Of a DNA stretch of 64,000 nucleotides, positions 16,803-47,757 are shown in pieces. Position 1 is the stretch's first letter, and each line of letters begins with the position of its first letter. The position numbers were made by a program, and so were the translations under genes. The stretch spans positions 19,333-83,332 of the forward strand of contig JAAWQR010000005.1 in assembly GCA_022800625.1 (NCBI GenBank), read 5' to 3'. The notes under the pieces are model-generated. The model was not told where the DNA came from. It made no database searches and worked only from the letters and a program-made list of their open reading frames with translations. Source of the stretch: Clostridiales bacterium. Lineage in GTDB: Bacteria; Bacillota; Clostridia; Oscillospirales; CAG-272.

Positions 16803-16809
16803 AAGAATA

Positions 16810-16897
16810 TCAAACATGGGGAGCTTGTGTTACAGGCTGAGAGGAAGGTATACCTTCGACCCGAAACCTGATTTGGATAATGCCAACGTAGGGACAA
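16810..16897 (+). promoter_or_regulatory. TPP (THI-box) riboswitch aptamer
   Basis: Contains the conserved GGGGAGC...GGCTGAGA...ACCCGAAACCTGAT..GGATAATGCC..CGTAGGGA elements in canonical order. Located upstream of thiE. Confidence 0.88.
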
Positions 16898-16910
16898 AAT
16901 ACGCTCTTTG

Positions 16911-16950
16911 CGGATATACCGAGGCTTGGTATATCCGTATTTTGTTTATT
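16911..16950 (+). terminator. Riboswitch expression-platform terminator
   Basis: CGGATATACC-GAGGCTT-GGTATATCCG followed by TATTTTGTTTATT. The upstream AAAATACG can pair alternatively. Confidence 0.7.
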
Positions 16951-24762: not shown

Positions 24763-26607
24763 TCAAATTCCGAAGAATTGTTTATGCCATGTGAGGAAGG
24801 TATATGCGGTCCAAATCTTTCGTCCGTTGTTGGCGCGTCCCTCTTTATGGTCGTCAAGCAGAGAAACAAGGCGCTGTGCGTCAAAGTATTCAGCGGCGGT
24901 ATCAGAAGTAAAAGCGTCTTTTACAATTCCGTAGTATTTGTCCTCGCGAAGCCAATTGCGTATCGGAACAGGGAAGCCCTTTTTAGGTCTGTTCGCCCAT
25001 TCATCGGGGAGTGTTCTGTTTGAGGCCGCTCTGAGAACTGCCTTGGTGTTCTCACCGTTTATTTTGTATCCTGTAGGTATAGCGGAAGCTTCTCTCATGA
25101 CTTCGCGGTCGAGATACGGAACTCTCAGTTCAAGCGAATGAGCCATGCTCATTTTATCAGCCTTCAGAAGAATGTCGCCTGGAAGCCAAAGATTCAGGTC
25201 AAGATACTGCTTCTTTTCGACCTCGGAAAGTCCTTTTGTTCTCTCATAAATCGGGCGAGTAATGTCGTCGATTGACGGACCGTTTTTATACTTTCCGCGC
25301 AGCACATCAAGCGCTTCTTTTTCGGGGAATACAAGCGCCTGACCGATAAAGTAATTTTCAGGAACGCCGCTTCCGCGGATAATAAAATCATGTCCCTTGA
25401 AGTACGGAAGAGCGGATGAAGCCGACGCGGCAAGACGTCTCAGCGGAGAGGGGACTTTTTTATATTTTCTCATGAGCGGTGATTCGTCATACCATTCGTA
25501 CCCTGCGTAAATTTCGTCGGCACCCTCGCCCGACAGTACTACCGTAACGTGCTCGGATGCGAGCTTAGCAAGGAAGTACAGCGGAACGGACGACGGATTC
25601 GACTGCGGCTCATCCATATGGTACTGAATTGTGGGAAAAGCCCTAAAGCATTCTTCGGCTGTCAGGTGACGCATGTGATTTTTTATTCCGAGTATATCCG
25701 AGAGAGCCTCAGCTTCGCTCGTTTCATCAAACCGTTCGGCGTTAAATCCGACAGAGAAAGTGTCGTTCGGCATAAGAGCCGCCGTGATGTAGCTTGAGTC
25801 TACACCTCCCGATAGGAAAGAGCCGACTTTAACATCGCTTATACGGTGAGCGGCTACCGATTCTCTGACGCGTGAGTCGATAAGATCTGCGCATTCGTCA
25901 AACGAATACGAGGCTTTTTCTCCGAAATTTACGTCCCAGTAGCGCCCTATATTCATTTTTCCGTCTTTGTATGTGAAAGAATGCGCCGCGGGCAGCTTGA
26001 ATACTCCCTTGAAGAATGTTTCCTCAGTAGCTGAGTACTGGAATGTAAGATACGGTCTGATCGCGTCGGGATTTACTTCCGGTTTAAAGTCAGGATGTTC
26101 AAGGAAGCTTTTAATCTCCGAGCCGAAGAGCAGAGAGCCGTTCTTTGTTACCGTGTAGTAAAAAGGCTTTATACCGAACGGATCACGCGCACCGAATAGA
26201 GTGCGAGTTTTTTTATCCCAAATCACAAAGGCAAACATGCCGCGCAAATGCTCAGTAATCTTTTCGCCGAATTCTTCATAGCCGTGGATTATCGTTTCCG
26301 TGTCGCATTTTGTTTTGAATACGTGACCGCGTGCGATAAGCTTATCGCGAAGGGACATAAAATTATAGATCTCGCCGTTAAAGACGATGACTACAGTTCC
26401 GTCCTCATTGTACATCGGCTGAGCGCCGTCCGACAGGTCTATGATGCTGAGCCTGCGGAAGCCGAGGGTTACGGTGTCGGGCGAGAGTGATTCATCAAGA
26501 AAATATCCTTCAGAATCAGGTCCTCGGTGTATTATACGATCCGCCATTTTGCGGATAACTTCTTTTCTGTGTTCTGTTTCTCCTGTAAAGCCGATAAAGC
26601 CGCACAT
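24763..26607 (-). CDS. asnB: Asparagine synthase (glutamine-hydrolysing)
   Basis: N-terminal MCGFIGF Ntn-Cys and SGGVDSS PP-loop. 614 aa. Confidence 0.9.
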   Translation of the reverse strand: MCGFIGFTGETEHRKEVIRKMADRIIHRGPDSEGYFLDESLSPDTVTLGFRRLSIIDLSDGAQPMYNEDGTVVIVFNGEIYNFMSLRDKLIARGHVFKTKCDTETIIHGYEEFGEKITEHLRGMFAFVIWDKKTRTLFGARDPFGIKPFYYTVTKNGSLLFGSEIKSFLEHPDFKPEVNPDAIRPYLTFQYSATEETFFKGVFKLPAAHSFTYKDGKMNIGRYWDVNFGEKASYSFDECADLIDSRVRESVAAHRISDVKVGSFLSGGVDSSYITAALMPNDTFSVGFNAERFDETSEAEALSDILGIKNHMRHLTAEECFRAFPTIQYHMDEPQSNPSSVPLYFLAKLASEHVTVVLSGEGADEIYAGYEWYDESPLMRKYKKVPSPLRRLAASASSALPYFKGHDFIIRGSGVPENYFIGQALVFPEKEALDVLRGKYKNGPSIDDITRPIYERTKGLSEVEKKQYLDLNLWLPGDILLKADKMSMAHSLELRVPYLDREVMREASAIPTGYKINGENTKAVLRAASNRTLPDEWANRPKKGFPVPIRNWLREDKYYGIVKDAFTSDTAAEYFDAQRLVSLLDDHKEGRANNGRKIWTAYTFLTWHKQFFGI

Positions 26608-26812
26608 AGTTTATATAAACTCCGTTCTGCCGCAAGTCGGCGGCACAAATTGATTTTCCTTCATACATGTTTATGGTATGACCTTATTTATTATATCATG
26701 ATTTTTTCCTTAAAGCCGCCTATGGCGGCATAAAATAGAAAAATCAGTCACGGGTAAAAATTTCATTACATGTTGCCGTGCCGCGTAAGCGGCACTTTGG
26801 CATTCACTGTTT

Positions 26813-26882
26813 TTATTATATCACATTCGGTCCCATAAATAAATACGTAGGATTGATTTTTTGCTTCAATATGTGATATGTG
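26813..26882. repeat. Copy A of a ~70-bp repeat carrying a minus-strand promoter and ATATGTG-ATATGTG tandem heptamer
   Basis: Hand alignment with 29003..29070 gives 51/70 identical positions. TTATTATATC and AATATGTGATATGTG are perfectly conserved. Reverse complement gives TGTGATATAATAA (extended -10) facing asnB. Confidence 0.6.
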
Positions 26883-26910
26883 AGCGCAATTTCATTGTGT
26901 AACTATGTTT

Positions 26911-26939
26911 TTGCAAAATAATAGAAGATATGTTATAAT
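26911..26939 (+). promoter_or_regulatory. Sigma-A type promoter upstream of the S41-like gene
   Basis: TTGCAA, 17 nt, TATAAT with TG at -15/-14 (TGTTATAAT). Confidence 0.6.
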
Positions 26940-27114
26940 AGAGCATAAGCAGAGTTGAAAAATATTTAGGCTTTAAAATAAAAGCTATGACAGATGCAAG
27001 TTGTCTGTATAGATGATCTGGTATCGTTTGACATTATCTAATGCTTTAAATTGTACAAATAATTTTGGAGAACAGGCTTTCTATCAAACTAAAATTTTTA
27101 TATAAAGGGAGAGA

Positions 27115-28413
27115 ATGGAATTGACAGGATTATCGGATTTATATAATGATTTTATATCAGAACAACATTTTATATCCTCTGTTAAAGATAATATAGGGAT
27201 TTATGATGTAAATATTTACACTGTTCAAATGGAAGAAGATATAGATCTATTGGAGTATATTCTAAACAACATATATAGCGGGAAAGATTTCCTTAAACGT
27301 AGAGGGATTTCAATATCAGAAAGTTTGAATACACTAAGGGCAAGAATTAAGTCTGTCAAGTCAATGAATAAGGTCGATTTTTTTAGATTGTTATGTTCTG
27401 CACTTGATGATATTAAAGACAGTCATCTCGTTTTTTCTCTTCCATACTTCAAAAATATACATCAGTTTTGTAGACATAATACCGTATATTTTGCTGACAT
27501 AACATTACAAAAAGATAGCGGTGGATATTTCATATTGTCTTCACAAGATTCGTCGGTAAAATGTGGGGAGCGTGTCATAATAGAAGAAGATTATCTATTC
27601 AGAACAGTTGATGGAAAATTTTTGTACGGAGTTTTCAGCGAAAAGCCGATTAAAACGATTACTTGTAACATTACAGGAGAAAAAGTACAATTGAATGTGT
27701 TACCGTCACCATTAAGACCGATAAAAAATAATGATTTATGGTCACATGAAAATTGTAATGGAATTGACATAGTCACAATATACAGTCTTTGTGCATTTAG
27801 CGTTGATGAAGAACAGAAACTGGAAGAATTAGTTGCACTGGGGAAAGTTCTAAAAGAATCAAAAAAAATCATACTGGATCTCCGAGGAAATAGAGGTGGC
27901 GATTCAGAAATTGCGCGAAGATTTATTGAGAACCTTAACGGCAGTGCATATATGAATTTAAATTATGCGAAACTGAATACGCAAGGAAGCAGATTAGCAG
28001 AAATAAGTCTTTATGCTGAGGATTTTGACAGTTATAGAAAGGTAAAAGAAGAAATTTTCCTTGATCCGGTTTGTAAGTGGCAATGTTCTGAATCTAATTT
28101 TATTTGTGACGGTCAGTATAAGAATCAACTTGTTGTATTAACAGACAGGCATACGGCATCTTCAGCAGAAATTATGTTGAAATGTATTAAGGATAATATT
28201 CCGCAGAGTGTTATAATTGGCGAAAATACAAGCGGGACGCTTAGCACAGGTGACATCAGACATTATTATCTGCCAAATTCTTTGATTTTTTTGGATGTTC
28301 CTACCGCAATATTTGCAGATATATTAGAAGAAGGAACAGGGTTTTGTCCTGATTTTTGGGACAAGGATGATGCCATGCAATCGGCTATAGATTTTTTGTC
28401 ACAAAAAAATTAA
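27115..28413 (+). CDS. S41 (C-terminal processing peptidase)-like protein, no signal peptide
   Basis: LDLRGNRGGD and TDRHTASSAEIM match S41 core motifs. The N-terminus is acidic and non-hydrophobic. The gene is strongly AT-rich relative to its neighbours. Confidence 0.5.
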   Translation: MELTGLSDLYNDFISEQHFISSVKDNIGIYDVNIYTVQMEEDIDLLEYILNNIYSGKDFLKRRGISISESLNTLRARIKSVKSMNKVDFFRLLCSALDDIKDSHLVFSLPYFKNIHQFCRHNTVYFADITLQKDSGGYFILSSQDSSVKCGERVIIEEDYLFRTVDGKFLYGVFSEKPIKTITCNITGEKVQLNVLPSPLRPIKNNDLWSHENCNGIDIVTIYSLCAFSVDEEQKLEELVALGKVLKESKKIILDLRGNRGGDSEIARRFIENLNGSAYMNLNYAKLNTQGSRLAEISLYAEDFDSYRKVKEEIFLDPVCKWQCSESNFICDGQYKNQLVVLTDRHTASSAEIMLKCIKDNIPQSVIIGENTSGTLSTGDIRHYYLPNSLIFLDVPTAIFADILEEGTGFCPDFWDKDDAMQSAIDFLSQKN

Positions 28414-28582
28414 ATATGGTTTATATAACATATACATTCAAAAGAATAGTTATATAAGTTTGAGAATTGAATTTTTGAAAAATATAAATGACGGGACAGA
28501 GCATATAAAATGCAGGGGGATTGAGTCTGAACAATCACCCTGCATAAATTTCGGTTGCAATATATTTGTTTCAACACATATC

Positions 28583-28960
28583 TCAATATCTGTTTCCATT
28601 TTTATTAAAGTTCTTTCTAAGTGCAATTTCAGTGAGAATCATAGTGCATATTATAACAACAATTTGTACCGAACAAACTACTCCGCCGATTATACCTATA
28701 TTAATGATATCTTTTCTGAATGCAAAAAGCATTACAGCTACGGATATAGGCAATATGATCCATCCGCACACTTTCCAAAGTTTCCCGAAGTATTTGTGTG
28801 CAAATTTCCAAGTCTCTTGATTCTTCATAGACATGTTTGTTCTGTATCCGGATGTAGCATTGATTTCTTTTGGAGGATTTTTCTCAAATCGATGTCCAGA
28901 ATAAATCATTGCAAGTGGGATCAATAAGTCCATGATCAACATAAATGTCCGAAATGCCAT
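28583..28960 (-). CDS. SdpI/YhfL family small membrane protein
   Basis: 125 aa. The pattern ...NxxxGYRTxxSMKNxETWxxAH..., followed by TM helices, is characteristic of the SdpI family. A strong AAGGAGG lies upstream. Confidence 0.55.
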   Translation of the reverse strand: MAFRTFMLIMDLLIPLAMIYSGHRFEKNPPKEINATSGYRTNMSMKNQETWKFAHKYFGKLWKVCGWIILPISVAVMLFAFRKDIINIGIIGGVVCSVQIVVIICTMILTEIALRKNFNKNGNRY

Positions 28961-29002
28961 AAAATACCTCCTTAAAGTTGACTTTTATTATATTTTACAA
29001 CA

Positions 29003-29070
29003 TTATTATATCGCAATTGATTATGTAAGTAAATATATGTCTGATTTTTTTCCTGAATATGTGATATGTG
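29003..29070. repeat. Copy B of the ~70-bp promoter-containing repeat
   Basis: See copy A. Reverse complement gives TTTACT, 17 nt, TATAAT facing the SdpI-family gene. Confidence 0.6.
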
Positions 29071-29167
29071 TGATTCTTTGAGGGGCTGAAAAAACGAGTT
29101 ATTTATTTTTTATTTTGTATATCACAAGATGAAAAATACCATAAAAATGCATAATAAAATTTAGGGG

Positions 29168-29196
29168 TTGCAATTTTAATTTGTTTGTGATATAAT
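29168..29196 (+). promoter_or_regulatory. Sigma-A type promoter of the G5/3D gene
   Basis: TTGCAA (29168-29173), 17 nt, TATAAT (29191-29196) with TG extension (TGATATAAT). Confidence 0.65.
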
Positions 29197-29371
29197 AAAC
29201 GCGTTATTGCCTTTCAAGGTCTATGCTCTCGTTGCAAAAGCAGCGCGAACTTTCACCATGAAATACAGCGTCTAAAGCGCAGTCAGACGGGGTATTTCAC
29301 AAATTTCCGGCAGGCAGTCGCAAGGCTTCCGCCGGCGGAAAGGAATCGCCAAACGGCGAGAAGGTGTTTTC

Positions 29372-31087
29372 TTGTATCTACGATCAGATAACTCTGATAG
29401 TACCGATTTAAGCCGCACCGCTATCACCGGGCAATCAGGCAAATTGCTCAGAGAAGGCATTATATCAGAAGAAACTGCAAATCCGCAGACTGAAACGGAT
29501 CAGTTTGACTTTGACGAGTCGGAAATTCCGGCATGTGTAAGGAGGAAGAGTACCAAACGGACAAATTCTGTGCAGACAGGCAATAATAACATCTCAAGCA
29601 CAGAACATATCGGCAATAGGGCCGATATGTCAAAAACCGCAGATATTCCGAATCTCAGAACAGCCGAGGTTGACGTTAAAGCAATCCGTGCAATGCGCAC
29701 GGGAACGTATCCTAAAGTATGCGAGACGAGCAAAAAGCCATCGTGCACGGGGCAGATACCCGTGATAGGTAAGCAGAGGAGAGATACCTCTGAGATACCC
29801 GCAGTGCGCCAAGCAAATTCACGTACGGGCAATATTCCTACAGTGAAGGCGCAAAAAAAATCATTGTTCTCAAAGCTCACATGGAGAACAAAATCCGAGC
29901 GGAGCGGAAAGGCTCCGTGTTTCCATACTATCCGTGGCGCGGAAGATATGGAGAAGTCAGTATACATTCCCGAGAGATTGTTATCTTTCATAGGAAGGCG
30001 GCGAAAAGCTGTATTAGTTGCAGCTTCATGCCTTGTCCTCGTATGCGTAGCTGTTCCGACAGCCGTATATGCGGCCTCAAAGGGTGTCTCTGCTGACAAA
30101 GACTTAGCGGACTTTGAAATTATTGAGACAGGCGATGACTTATATGCCATGAGTCTTGACGGCGTGTCTGCAGACGCGTTCAAACTGTCATCGGCAAATG
30201 TTCTTTATAATGATTTCGAAAAGTCTGATGACGACAAAGATAATGACACAGAAAAGAATGAAACTATTGATGAAGATGTGACATCTGAAGGAGCAATGCT
30301 GCTCAGCACGGATACCGAAGAAGATGCGGCGTCAGCCGAATTTCTGTCTGAAAATTTTTTCACGGTAACACTGCAGTTCTATGATAGAGACAGTATCACA
30401 TGCTCGACCTCCCCCCTGACCTTGAGGGAGCTGTTCGCAAAAGTCGGATATACGCAGCGAGATACTGATAAGATCTACGCAGGACTTGACGATGTGATTG
30501 ATTCAGAATGCACTATAATAATTGACAGCGTTGAATATTCAACTTTGACTGAGACTGAAAGCATACCTTTTGAGGTGGAAACGATCGATGTACAGTCTAT
30601 CCCGCGCGGAACAACTCAGACGGTAACAGACGGCGCAGTCGGTGCGCGCGACGTTGTATACACTGTCGAATATGTAAACGGAGTTGAAGTGTCCCGCGAA
30701 AAGCAGTATGACTATGTTGTGAGTGAGCCTGTAAATCAGGTTGAATACCGAGGAGTCGGCGGGGTGCTTTATGCTCCCGACGGAAATGCGTATTCTTATT
30801 CATATTGCGTAACAGTTCGTGCAACATATTATGATCTTCCGGGAAGAACGGCTTCCGGTATGCCCGTTGGCAATAACATTGTGGCAACCGATCCGTCAGT
30901 TTTCCCACTCGGCACGAATATGTATGTCATGAGCGACTCATACGATATGGGTCTGAGAGTTGCGGCAGATACCGGCGGCGGTGTCAAAGGTAACCTCATT
31001 GACATTTGGATGGATCAGTCATCTCCCAATTTTGCACGTTTTTCATCACAGGGTGTCGCGGAAATGACAGCTTATATTCTTGACTGA
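29372..31087 (+). CDS. Membrane-anchored G5 + 3D (MltA/RlpA-like) domain cell-wall protein, YabE/RpfB-like
   Basis: Apparent TTG start after GAGAAGGTG. About 215-aa cytoplasmic region and one TM helix (AVLVAASCLVLVCVAVPTAVYA). G5-like segment (TQTVTDGAVGARDVVYTVEYVNGVEVSRE) and C-terminal 3D domain (ATYYDL...TASG...VATDPSVFPLGT...AADTGGGVKGN.IDIW). Confidence 0.75.
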   Translation: MYLRSDNSDSTDLSRTAITGQSGKLLREGIISEETANPQTETDQFDFDESEIPACVRRKSTKRTNSVQTGNNNISSTEHIGNRADMSKTADIPNLRTAEVDVKAIRAMRTGTYPKVCETSKKPSCTGQIPVIGKQRRDTSEIPAVRQANSRTGNIPTVKAQKKSLFSKLTWRTKSERSGKAPCFHTIRGAEDMEKSVYIPERLLSFIGRRRKAVLVAASCLVLVCVAVPTAVYAASKGVSADKDLADFEIIETGDDLYAMSLDGVSADAFKLSSANVLYNDFEKSDDDKDNDTEKNETIDEDVTSEGAMLLSTDTEEDAASAEFLSENFFTVTLQFYDRDSITCSTSPLTLRELFAKVGYTQRDTDKIYAGLDDVIDSECTIIIDSVEYSTLTETESIPFEVETIDVQSIPRGTTQTVTDGAVGARDVVYTVEYVNGVEVSREKQYDYVVSEPVNQVEYRGVGGVLYAPDGNAYSYSYCVTVRATYYDLPGRTASGMPVGNNIVATDPSVFPLGTNMYVMSDSYDMGLRVAADTGGGVKGNLIDIWMDQSSPNFARFSSQGVAEMTAYILD

Positions 31088-31102
31088 TAAATTAGAGCAT
31101 AG

Positions 31103-31136
31103 AAAAGAACCGAACTGCGCTTCGGTTCTTTTTTTG
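31103..31136. terminator. Bidirectional intrinsic terminator (G5/3D gene and gatB)
   Basis: GAACCGAA-CTGCGC-TTCGGTTC flanked by AAAA and TTTTTTT. Confidence 0.8.
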
Positions 31137-31155
31137 TATGTTATTTCATTCCTTG

Positions 31156-32577
31156 CTATTCAAAAAATCTGTCAACCTCACGATTTGCAAGCACGGGATC
31201 GGCTTTTCCTCCCGTTTCCCGCATTACATAACCTACTATTACTTTTTTTGCGCCGAGCTTGCCCTTTTTTACTTCACGTACAGCTTCGGGAAGCGACTTT
31301 GCTGCCTTTATTATAAGTGTTCTTATCGTTTCGGCATCGCGTATCATGAACAGATTCATTTTTTCTGCGATCTCTCTCGGGGAATTACCGCTGTTACTGA
31401 CAGATGCAATAAGCTTTTTGGCAGATACAATGTTTATCTCTCCTGCGCTGTACATTGCGGAAATTTCAGAAAGCTTTTCGGGAGACAGGATAGATTTTGA
31501 GTCTTTCATTTTCGGAAAAACTTCACTGACAAATAAATTGGAGAGAGTAAGCGCATCAGATTTATCGGATATTGCCGATTCAAAGTAAGCTGCTGTTTCG
31601 GGAGACGTGCATATTATCCCAGCGTTTCCGTCTGAAATACCGAACTTTCTCATAGAAGCTTTGATCTCTCCCGGCATTCTCGGCATCTCCGCGCGTATTC
31701 TTTCAACATACTCTTTGTCTGTAAGAATCGGAGGAATATCAGGCTCTCTGATATATCTGTAATCAGAACAGCTTTCCTTTGAGCGCATGCGTTCGGTCTT
31801 TCCGGAGGATTCGGAGAATCGGCGTGTTTCACATTCTATTTTGCCGCCGTTCTCAATAATATCGACCTGTCTTTTTAATTCGCTTTCAATTGCTCGTCCG
31901 ATAAAATTTACGGAATTTATATTCTTTATCTCACACCGCGCTCTAAGTGTATTCTCTCCCTCTTTTCTGACTGATATATTAACGTCACATCTGAGCGAAC
32001 CTTCGTTCATCTTACAGTCTGACACACCTGCGAACAGCAGTCTGCTGCGCAGTTCATTTACAAACGCCATAGTTTCGTCAGCGCTTCTCATATCAGGCTC
32101 GGTTACAATCTCAATGAGCGGTACACCGCAGCGATTGTTGTCGATATTGACTCCGTTTTCCGAGTACGATAGTTTGCCCGCGTCTTCCTCCATATGAATT
32201 TCTCGGATTCTTATTTTTTTGTCTTTTTCACCATCGCTGAGTGTAACATATCCGTCAAGGCATAGCGGAGAATAAAACTGTGTTATCTGATACCCTTTCG
32301 GAAGATCGGGATAGAAATAATGTTTTCTGTCAAAATATGATATCTCGGAAATACGGCAGTTTAGGGCTAATCCCGCGCGCACGGCAAGGCTGACGGCTTC
32401 TCCGTTCAGGCAGGGAATAGCTCCCGGCATACCGAGACATATCGGACAGCAGTTTCTGTTCGGCTCATTTCCGTATGCGGTGCTGCATGAGCAAAACGCT
32501 TTTTCGGCAGTTTTTAATTCAACATGGACTTCCGCGCCTATTACGGGTTCATATCCTTTATATAATGTATTACTCAT
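31156..32577 (-). CDS. gatB: Asp-tRNA(Asn)/Glu-tRNA(Gln) amidotransferase subunit B
   Basis: N-terminal YEPVIGAEVHVELKT and a C-terminal YqeY-like tail. 473 aa. Confidence 0.92.
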   Translation of the reverse strand: MSNTLYKGYEPVIGAEVHVELKTAEKAFCSCSTAYGNEPNRNCCPICLGMPGAIPCLNGEAVSLAVRAGLALNCRISEISYFDRKHYFYPDLPKGYQITQFYSPLCLDGYVTLSDGEKDKKIRIREIHMEEDAGKLSYSENGVNIDNNRCGVPLIEIVTEPDMRSADETMAFVNELRSRLLFAGVSDCKMNEGSLRCDVNISVRKEGENTLRARCEIKNINSVNFIGRAIESELKRQVDIIENGGKIECETRRFSESSGKTERMRSKESCSDYRYIREPDIPPILTDKEYVERIRAEMPRMPGEIKASMRKFGISDGNAGIICTSPETAAYFESAISDKSDALTLSNLFVSEVFPKMKDSKSILSPEKLSEISAMYSAGEINIVSAKKLIASVSNSGNSPREIAEKMNLFMIRDAETIRTLIIKAAKSLPEAVREVKKGKLGAKKVIVGYVMRETGGKADPVLANREVDRFFE

Positions 32578-43457: not shown

Positions 43458-43844
43458 ATGGAAGTCAAGCTGACGGCAAAAGAGAAAACGGTTATTTTTG
43501 CGGCGGTATTAGGAAGCATTGCGGCAGGCTTTATGAACGGCTTGCTCGGAGCGGGCGGCGGTATTATACTGACGTTTGTTTTATCGTATATATTCGGCGG
43601 TACGGGGATTTCGAGAAGCGGTCTCATATCCGCAATGGCGGCGATTCTTCCGATATCGCTGTTTTCGCTTATGACATACGGATTCGGAGAGTATTTTGAA
43701 CCGGGTTTTCTGCTGTCGGTCGCAGTTCCGTCGGCGCTCGGAGGAATTTCGGGAGCGTTTGTGGGAGCACGAATAAAATCTGTGTGGCTTGTGCGGATAT
43801 TTGCCGTTTTGGTTATTTATTCGGGAGTGCGTATGCTGATATAA
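43458..43844 (+). CDS. Half-size (4-TM) TauE/SafE (TSUP) family membrane protein
   Basis: 128 aa. GLLGAGGGII motif, four predicted TM helices, own SD. Confidence 0.65.
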   Translation: MEVKLTAKEKTVIFAAVLGSIAAGFMNGLLGAGGGIILTFVLSYIFGGTGISRSGLISAMAAILPISLFSLMTYGFGEYFEPGFLLSVAVPSALGGISGAFVGARIKSVWLVRIFAVLVIYSGVRMLI

Positions 43845-44046
43845 GCAAAATCTTAAAAGAAACGGAGATTAGCGTGAAAGATATGTTTAGTATCCATAAA
43901 AGAGTATCTGTTTCACAGTCAAATTCTGATAATTCGTATTTATGCGGGCAGCAGAAATGAGATCCGCTCCATTATGTTTCCCTTAAAGTGCAGGAGAATT
44001 TTATTACTGCTTGTGCCGCCGCTTTGGCGGCGGAATGGAGTTATTT

Positions 44047-44448
44047 ATGAGTATCACAGATATGATTGTTATATATACAGTTGCTTTGCTGGCAGGCACG
44101 GGAGTCGGCGGCGGAGGTCTGCTTGTGATTTATCTGACGGCGGTGCTTTCCATGCGTCAGGCTGAAGCACAGGCGATAAATCTTATATTTTTTATTTTTT
44201 CCGCTGCGGCTGCATTGCCGTATCACATAAAACGCGAAAAAATCGACTTAAAGATAACTGTATTCTGCGCAGCTTTCGGTATTTTCGGCTCATTTATCGG
44301 CGGAAGTTTCAGAAGTATTCTTCCCGAAGAGACTGTTCGTGCGATTTTCGGAGCTATGCTCATAGCAACGGGAACGGTATCTCTCTTCAAAAGACAAAAA
44401 GAAGCGGAAGTTTCAGTGAGCGCCGATAAAAGCTGTAAGAATGTCTGA
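44047..44448 (+). CDS. Second half-size (4-TM) TauE/SafE (TSUP) family membrane protein
   Basis: GTGVGGGGLLVIYL motif. The ATG at 44047 lies 6 nt after GGAG. ORF track 44011..44448. Confidence 0.65.
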   Translation: MSITDMIVIYTVALLAGTGVGGGGLLVIYLTAVLSMRQAEAQAINLIFFIFSAAAALPYHIKREKIDLKITVFCAAFGIFGSFIGGSFRSILPEETVRAIFGAMLIATGTVSLFKRQKEAEVSVSADKSCKNV

Positions 44449-47205: not shown

Positions 47206-47250
47206 TGCGGTGAAAAGCAGTATTGCAGGTATTTAAAGCGGAGGATGTAT

Positions 47251-47757
47251 ATGAATAACGAAGAACTTATAATAAAAATGCTCGGCGATCTTGCCGAGTC
47301 ACAGGCGGAAACAAGTAAAAACATCGCCGACATAAAAGATCGGGTTATAAATCTTGAAAACGGTGTAACCAATATTGAAAATCGGGTTACAAGTCTTGAA
47401 AACGGTGTGACCAATATTGAAAGTCGGGTCACAAATCTTGAAAACGGTGTGACCAATATTGAAAATCGGGTTATAAATCTTGAAACGAATATGTCGGAGA
47501 TTAACGAGTGCACGGTCAGACTTGAAACAAATGTATCCGACATAAAAACTCGGGTTACAAGCCTAGAAGTGAATCAGGAAACGGTCATAATTCCGCAGAT
47601 AAAGCTTCTCGCAGAAGGTCACGGTACTATAATAGACCATATCAAACGGCTTGATACATATCCTATCCAAGAAATGCAGGATGATATAGTACTTTTGAAA
47701 TCAGCGGTGAAGGCACTGCTCTCTGAGGTTGCAGAACTTAAAGCTGCAAAGCAATAG
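47251..47757 (+). CDS. Heptad-repeat coiled-coil protein, function unknown
   Basis: About 11 consecutive heptads N-[LI]-E-N-x-V-T. The ATG at 47251 lies 6 nt after GGAGG. Confidence 0.6.
   Translation: MNNEELIIKMLGDLAESQAETSKNIADIKDRVINLENGVTNIENRVTSLENGVTNIESRVTNLENGVTNIENRVINLETNMSEINECTVRLETNVSDIKTRVTSLEVNQETVIIPQIKLLAEGHGTIIDHIKRLDTYPIQEMQDDIVLLKSAVKALLSEVAELKAAKQ
47338..47490 (+). repeat. Intragenic tandem repeat, 42-bp unit (two 21-bp subunits), about 3.3 copies
   Basis: Units at 47350-47391, 47392-47433 and 47434-47475 differ at only a few positions. Each encodes NLENGVTNIENRVT. Confidence 0.85.

Follow-up and report, generated by a model that had tools for sequence, protein, structure and literature searches.

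The question raised by this locus is why two neighbouring minus-strand loci are preceded by what looks like the same piece of non-coding DNA. They lie in a 64,000-nt stretch of a Clostridiales bacterium genome (assembly GCA_022800625.1, contig JAAWQR010000005.1, positions 19,333 to 83,332; hereafter the window), in which a direct repeat of about 70 bp occurs once as copy A (26813..26882, minus strand), upstream of asnB (24763..26607, minus strand), the first gene of an asnB-p421-racemase-murE operon, and once as copy B (29003..29070, minus strand), upstream of sdpI (28583..28960, minus strand), which encodes an SdpI-family membrane protein of 125 aa. A plus-strand gene for an S41-like peptidase (coding sequence 27115-28413) lies between the two copies. 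An earlier note on this DNA offered two readings of the repeat, a shared regulator-binding module and a duplicated junction left by insertion of AT-rich DNA. Our analysis favors a different answer, namely that A and B are paralogous sigma-A-type promoter modules, A being the native asnB promoter and B an old duplicate serving sdpI, and we put the probability of this reading at roughly 0.6.

Statistical support for the repeat

The repeat is confirmed. Smith-Waterman alignment of the whole intergenic regions gives 53/70 identical columns with one 2-nt gap, which slightly corrects the 51 of 70 obtained by hand in the earlier note, and the alignment score of 54 compares with 22.5 ± 2.7 (maximum 40) in 1000 dinucleotide-preserving shuffles. 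With blastn, the A-B match has an E value of 1.9e-8 against the whole window and the next best match has an E value of 0.06. The A-B pair also stands apart among 420 pairwise comparisons of the 21 intergenic regions of the window, where the runner-up scores 34 and the 99th percentile is 27. Repeat finding recovers the same relationship as two adjoining direct-repeat families with a 2-nt offset between them, one pairing 26813-26845 with 29003-29035 at 73% identity and the other pairing 26854-26882 with 29042-29070 at 90% identity. The blocks previously described as perfectly conserved are indeed so, with AATATGTGATATGTG exact in both copies and absent from the rest of the window. The 14-mer formed by the heptamer pair has, at up to 2 mismatches, just two further matches in the window, both within coding sequence, while TTATTATATC occurs four times, always at the asnB-sdpI locus, against 0.27 occurrences expected.

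A chance resemblance of two AT-rich promoter regions would be the simplest way to dismiss these numbers, given that both regions are AT-rich and that GATATAAT is a common form of the -10 element in the window (16 occurrences). The similarity is nevertheless well above the background of AT-rich intergenic DNA, exceeding both the shuffle maximum and the best other real intergenic pair, and together with the blastn value these alignments already refute the chance explanation, to which we attach practically no weight.

Architecture of the two copies

The matches between A and B fall into four blocks on the minus strand that keep a fixed spacing, and outside these blocks identity is near random. 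The -10 block GATATAATAA matches at 10/10 positions, a -35-like block TATTTAYTTA at 9/10 (6+3), an A-tract block AAAAAATCA at 9/9, and a heptamer block CACATATCACATATT, at approximately -60 to -74, at 15/15, whereas only 10 of the 26 positions between blocks match, against a chance expectation of about 28%; if mismatches were placed at random, such clustering would have P = 0.008. The blocks map onto the parts of a promoter, with a -10 element, a weak -35 hexamer 17 nt upstream of it, an A-tract at about -46 to -54 and heptamers at about -66, and the upstream element can be written as the pattern ATCACATATT-N5-AAAAAATCA.

Copy A carries the extended -10 element ATGTGATATAAT (26815..26826, minus strand; TATAAT at 26815-26820 and TGTG at 26822-26825), preceded by the -35-like block TATTTATTTA (26836..26845, minus strand), whose hexamer TTTATT (26838-26843) lies 17 nt from TATAAT and agrees with the -35 consensus at 3/6 positions, a weakness compensated by the TGTG extension. 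The A-tract block occupies 26854..26862 and the tandem heptamers CACATAT-CACATAT occupy 26869..26882 (both minus strand; the latter read as ATATGTG twice on the plus strand and are centred near -67). The transcription start predicted from this geometry is near 26808, which would leave about 200 nt to the asnB ATG. In copy B the core promoter TTTACT-17-TATAAT (29005..29033, minus strand; TATAAT at 29005-29010, TTTACT at 29028-29033) agrees with the consensus at 10/12 positions in a consensus scan, and the A-tract (29042-29050) and tandem heptamers (29057-29070) together form the minus-strand segment 29042..29070 that is 90% identical to 26854-26882 of copy A. About 40 nt separate copy B from the start codon of sdpI, which has a ribosome-binding site AAGGAGG at 28966-28972, and the predicted transcription start near 28998 would leave a leader of about 38 nt before the ATG.

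The minus-strand elements reported earlier are thus present as described, copy A having TGTGATATAAT and copy B having TTTACT-17-TATAAT. The module resembles Gram-positive sigma-A promoters with a TRTG-extended -10 and an UP-like element in several respects: each copy has a TATAAT at a proper distance from a weak -35 region (16-18 nt upstream in both), copy A, like the asnB promoters of relatives, has TGTG one base 5' of the -10, the A-tract sits where an A-rich upstream element is found, and a same-strand gene with a ribosome-binding site follows. It departs from such promoters in that copy B has no TG, the -35 hexamers are weak (3-4/6), and an extra, exact 15-nt element stands upstream of the A-tract, which to our knowledge belongs to no known promoter consensus. 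Its placement suggests that the A-tract may have an UP-like role, and the heptamers may be bound by a factor.

A partial third copy (copy C, 26688..26714, minus strand) is found in the asnB leader, where an A-tract block TTTAAGGAAAAAATCA is fused directly to a -10 block TGATATAATAA (26688-26707), a two-block pattern for which 0.00 occurrences are expected in shuffles. Lying about 80 nt from the asnB ATG, copy C could act as an additional proximal promoter.

Descent of copy A and copy B

A profile hidden Markov model of the module was searched over 1.37 Mb comprising related loci and the window, and asnB promoters were compared in 80 relatives. The search found no copies beyond the known ones, but its best sub-threshold matches lie directly upstream of asnB in relatives. 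The core of copy A, CGTATTTATTT-16 nt-TATAAT/TAAAAT with TGTG, recurs 5' of asnB in three of them, L005, L090 and L037, whose AsnB proteins are 81%, 84% and 73% identical to that of the window, respectively; L037 additionally has the copy A spacer CCGAATGTG. In these relatives the arrangement TATTTATTT-16 nt-TAWAAT with TGTG stands 55-100 nt upstream of asnB, in the orthologous position to copy A. This orthology of the core indicates that copy A is the native, ancestral asnB promoter.

The same comparison bears on copy B, where TATTTATTT likewise stands 16 nt before the -10 element. Since this -35-region block is not generic promoter sequence and is nonetheless present in copy B, descent from the asnB promoter is favored over convergence. 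The upstream part has a different history. The heptamer 14-mer is absent from the orthologous asnB promoters of all 80 relatives, and the asnB promoters of relatives have neither the A-tract nor the heptamers. This upstream part is species-specific and either predated the duplication or was copied with it. In the sister species L005 (7709-7783) and L090 (at the start of the contig), a tRNA-Pro gene lies just upstream of the asnB promoter. No tRNA gene is found in the 64-kb window, so that synteny upstream of asnB is broken exactly at the -35 block.

The findings so far are consistent with the following sequence of events. A 70-bp asnB promoter unit would have been duplicated long ago and copy B placed before sdpI; unconstrained positions would then have drifted to near-random similarity, while purifying selection would have preserved, in each copy, the core elements together with the A-tract/heptamer element at fixed spacing. 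As a result, sdpI would be transcribed with the basal signals of the cell-wall operon, along with any upstream factor acting on that operon. The earlier proposal of two minus-strand promoters within the repeat is borne out as far as can be judged from the DNA itself, with the copy A core and its 16-nt spacing recurring in three relatives and copy B presenting the same blocks and spacing about 40 nt before sdpI.

Strain variation and the S41 cassette

The earlier note had the repeat bracket an AT-rich two-gene islet. This is literally true, and the low G+C content of the islet holds (25-35% across approximately 26650-29200 against 40-51% in the flanks), but the description is misleading, for strains vary in the S41 segment only and copies A and B and sdpI persist without it. 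The species is represented in a few public assemblies. L001, L003 and L004 are identical or nearly so to the window, and L002 is a mosaic in which neither copy is changed. A lineage diverged by about 2%, whose asnB side is present in three samples (L089, L102 and L103), retains from copy A the proximal heptamer, the A-tract and both the -35 and -10 elements, and its three copy A substitutions all lie between blocks. Four matching bases past the distal heptamer its sequence becomes unrelated to the window, and the breakpoint coincides with the outer edge of the copy A heptamers. On the other side, L101 (about 2% diverged) keeps sdpI, an unchanged copy B and the gene encoding a G5/3D protein (29372-31087), and has unrelated non-coding DNA to the left of approximately 28555-28578; 11 differences are found in its sdpI-G5/3D intergenic region and 0 within copy B. 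L092 combines the replacement seen in L101 with a deletion of about 470 nt (approximately 28652-29120) that removes copy B and the 5' two-thirds of sdpI, with its junction at a 4-nt ATAT microhomology (L092:571-660 against window 28578-29125). The loss of the 5' part of sdpI in this strain shows that the gene is dispensable in nature. Variation among strains is therefore confined to the S41-like cassette (26887..28555, plus strand, with an approximate right boundary at 28555-28578 and its own promoter TTGCAA-17-TATAAT at 26911-26939, plus strand); variant strains have unrelated DNA in its place, and both promoter copies exist without it.

These boundaries bear on the alternative reading of the repeat as a recombination junction, whether attL/attR-like or a long target duplication, left behind when AT-rich DNA with the S41-like gene and sdpI was inserted into the interval from asnB to the G5/3D gene; the 15-nt core would then be the crossover and copy B would have no selected promoter role. 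The features that call such elements to mind are direct repeats flanking low-G+C DNA, an identical 15-nt core that is terminal in each copy and has diverged similarity on just one of its sides, the breakpoint of L089, L102 and L103 within a few nt of the copy A heptamers, and the occurrence of S41-like genes as AT-rich single-gene islets in unrelated contexts elsewhere. Unlike the attachment sites of integrated elements, however, the copies have no integrase, recombinase or transposase gene between them (only the S41-like peptidase and SdpI), both remain in strains without S41, and the mismatches between them are uneven and spare the promoter elements. The variable segment itself has its left end at copy A (approximately 26883-26886) and its right end not at copy B but downstream of sdpI, about 450 nt short. 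An empty single-copy site was found neither among 11 same-species contigs nor among the 80 relatives, the sister species carrying tRNA-Pro upstream of asnB. The heptamers also do not accompany S41 homologues in other genomes: in four contexts examined, the homologues show no linkage to sdpI or asnB, and their flanks are free of heptamers. The position of the right end and the lack of a recombinase gene argue that the repeat is not the scar of an S41/sdpI islet, an origin we regard as improbable. Nor does the repeat have the character of a miniature inverted-repeat transposable element, with many dispersed copies, terminal inverted repeats and target duplications; just two complete copies and a partial one are present, all within 2.4 kb.

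Several observations on the variable DNA can be added. In variant strains a segment of about 80 nt, AAAGAAAGTGCGAC...CTTTGC...GCTAC.CAGGCGAA, adjoins copy A (L089:1-77, L102 and L103) and the sdpI-side end (L092:392-478 and L101) in opposite orientations, with about 80-85% identity between sides. This layout resembles the ends of an inserted element, and in all three samples the contigs break off at one identical base. The DNA that takes the place of S41 in the variant strains (samples SRR17406706, SRR31513131, SRR24860713 and SRR28738929) is covered for 108 nt beside copy A and 570 nt beside sdpI. No counterpart of the 80-nt segment occurs in the window, in plasmids or in phages, and the unique DNA of L092 likewise has no match in plasmid or phage collections. 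A group II intron end was suspected in L092 and was not confirmed by Rfam. An inverted single heptamer CACATAT at 28575-28581 was considered as the breakpoint of L092 and L101 and was rejected, diverged homology running on to approximately 28555. The end of the L004 contig at 29073, beside the copy B heptamers, was not used as evidence; at the opposite end the contig breaks off mid-S41, away from any repeat, so that the contig ends suggest a coverage effect. The S41-like family is small, with 30 relatives among 5.8 billion clusters, and its genes are AT-rich relative to their hosts (e.g., 30% against 46% G+C for L085 7001-8293) and occur among unrelated neighbours, behaving as a mobile-like cassette of one gene. 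The S41-like protein of the window has no evident N-terminal signal peptide, and no relative of SdpI or S41 is found in viral contigs. L002 is identical to the window over asnB, S41, sdpI and both copies and has 127 differences packed into the G5/3D-gatB stretch (29800-32000; up to 39 per 250 nt), a pattern that suggests a recombination tract.

Duplication as the probable origin of copy B

An older duplication that put sdpI behind a copy of the asnB promoter appears to be the simplest and most likely origin of copy B. It would resemble known cases in which promoter duplication or capture provides a horizontally acquired gene with a resident promoter, in that a low-G+C sdpI lies behind a diverged copy of the promoter of a neighbouring housekeeping operon and the module has its functional blocks kept and its spacers randomised. 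It differs from such cases in that the duplication is proposed from sequence comparison, no single-copy strain was found and sdpI has only distant relatives.

Several points weigh against this reading. There are just two full copies, in one species, and the case for selection and ancestry is built on one pairwise alignment and a few close strains. A strain with a single copy was sought without success in the 11 same-species contigs and the 80 relatives. The variant lineage on the asnB side has CATTCAT in place of CACATAT as its distal heptamer, so the tandem pair is not indispensable for asnB. The absence of changes from copy B in L101 is not significant by itself, as about 1.8 would be expected (P of about 0.16). 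Finally, the proximal extended -10 of copy C could be the main asnB promoter in this organism.

A possible regulon based on the upstream element

If A and B descend from one promoter, the asnB operon and sdpI probably share basal strength and the action of any factor at the upstream element, and shared control through the heptamers is plausible. A further step would be to take the A-tract and CACATATCACATATT as the operator of a regulator (e.g., a small protein that binds 7-bp repeats) coupling the D-Asp/D-Asn cross-bridge operon to the SdpI-like protein, i.e., as a small lineage-specific envelope regulon made by promoter duplication. We offer this extension only tentatively.

The likeness could also have arisen without duplication, by convergence within one regulon, in which a dedicated factor bound at about -65 to the heptamers (plus the A-tract) would govern sdpI and the cross-bridge operon together and the remainder is ordinary promoter consensus. 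In its favor, an exact 15-mer and 9-mer keep a constant distance from the -10 of each copy, the position of the heptamers suits an upstream activator site, and both the asnB operon and sdpI are cell-envelope loci. There is precedent for such coupling, as the SdpI paralogue YfhL of B. subtilis is under an envelope-stress sigma factor. Convergence does not account for the non-consensus TATTTAYTTA and exact 16-nt spacing that copy B shares with the asnB promoter lineage, which point to common descent. Moreover, neither the window nor the 1.37 Mb of related loci contains a third site, the site is missing from the asnB promoters of relatives, the variant strains have lost the distal heptamer, and a survey of the window's predicted proteins of 70 aa or more turned up no DNA-binding regulator. 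We therefore consider a convergent origin unlikely, and prefer duplication.

Wider searches, which covered the related loci and JGI metagenomes rather than the whole genome of the species, gave no further members of a regulon. The strict module pattern has 0 matches in JGI metagenomes, and a looser A-tract and heptamer pattern has 6, none with promoter geometry or similarity to the window and one of them a heptamer microsatellite. A full-text literature search for the 14-mer found nothing, and Rfam covariance models run over 26400-29500 gave no hit at E <= 5. An apparently regular spacing of about 53 bp between TGTGATAT motifs was dropped when a recount gave 54, 52, 59 and 67 nt.

Known classes of binding protein also fit poorly. 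Sites of the WalR type are TGTWAH-N5-TGTWAH direct repeats, and sites of OmpR, PhoB and WalR-type proteins have a period of 10-11 bp, whereas the heptamers have a period of 7 bp with no spacer, which does not suit winged-helix response regulators. A 7-bp unit in a promoter region is shared with the operators of omega, a ribbon-helix-helix ParB/repressor protein of inc18 plasmids such as pSM19035, which consist of 7-10 contiguous 5'-WATCACW-3' heptads overlapping promoters, at least 2 contiguous heptads being needed and at least 4 for full activity (PMC9499535). The module has one perfect heptad per copy, TATCACA, rather than an array, and the neighbours are imperfect or out of register, the second heptad of copy B, AATCACA, lying at a 9-nt rather than a 7-nt offset. 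The heptad WATCACW is not enriched in the window (40 found against 34 expected), and no ribbon-helix-helix gene was found there. The module does not match an omega-type operator.

Leaders, gene starts and other features of the window

The gene identities assumed throughout (AsnB, S41-like peptidase, SdpI family and G5/3D) agree with those given earlier. Public gene calls start asnB at an internal ATG and give 594 aa, and reading from the ATG at 26607 gives a protein of 614 aa that begins MCGF. The MCGF start supplies the N-terminal cysteine expected of the amidotransferase class of AsnB. Many Oscillospirales-like metagenome-assembled genomes retain the operon in which asnB is accompanied by genes for a 421-aa protein weakly similar to ATP-grasp proteins and for an aspartate-type racemase, and by murE, and this gene set is one that we take to fit the D-Asp/D-Asn cross-bridge pathway of peptidoglycan in enterococci and lactococci. 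For sdpI, the closest relative has 56% identity (among representatives of clusters at 50% identity), and no remnant of the gene was found in the asnB leader.

The asnB leader (26608-26812, minus strand) extends about 200 nt from the copy A promoter, compared with 55-100 nt in relatives. It contains three GC-rich hairpins of the GCCGC...GCGGC type, with a folding energy of -58.6 kcal/mol (z = -4.0 against shuffles), and has no Rfam match. In L002, 9 of the 10 differences from the window within 26600-29400 cluster in this leader, at 26682-26792.

On the plus strand, promoters TTGCAA-17-TATAAT had been placed after each copy, at 26911 and 29168. Both are present, the second (29168..29196) as a promoter-like sequence ahead of the G5/3D gene, but they have no geometry in common with the repeat and lie outside it, their -35 boxes standing 28 and 97 nt from the heptamers. 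The GC-rich leader between the second of them and the G5/3D gene (29203-29371, plus strand) is structured (z = -2.7) and nearly invariant among strains. Genes of the G5/3D type are often preceded by riboswitches; no Rfam family matched this leader.

Elsewhere in the window, a thiamine pyrophosphate riboswitch at 16807-16911 (58 bits, above the Rfam gathering score) is the only Rfam hit and lies between a hydrogenase cluster and the thiamine genes thiC, thiD and thiE. Two adjacent open reading frames on the same strand, 43458-43844 and 44011-44448, correspond to the C- and N-terminal halves of the TauE/SafE exporter family in swapped order; they could represent either a pair of short paralogues or one gene that has been rearranged. 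The open reading frame 47245-47757, which has sub-threshold matches only, to coiled-coil-type Pfam families, contains a tandem repeat (47335-47485) whose period is about 42-43 nt and whose copies are about 91% identical.

Biological significance

The event described here, a duplicated promoter, is of an ordinary and well-known kind and is confined to one species of an uncultured organism, so that its wider significance is limited. For annotation, the analysis gives the start of asnB (MCGF, 614 aa) together with its promoter, identifies S41 rather than sdpI as the variable cassette, and marks the locus as a rearrangement hot spot. The heptamers and the A-tract form a short upstream element that is a candidate regulatory site. 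If copy B is indeed an old duplicate of the asnB promoter, the locus would illustrate how a 70-bp promoter copy can bring an AT-rich accessory gene into the resident cell-wall programme.

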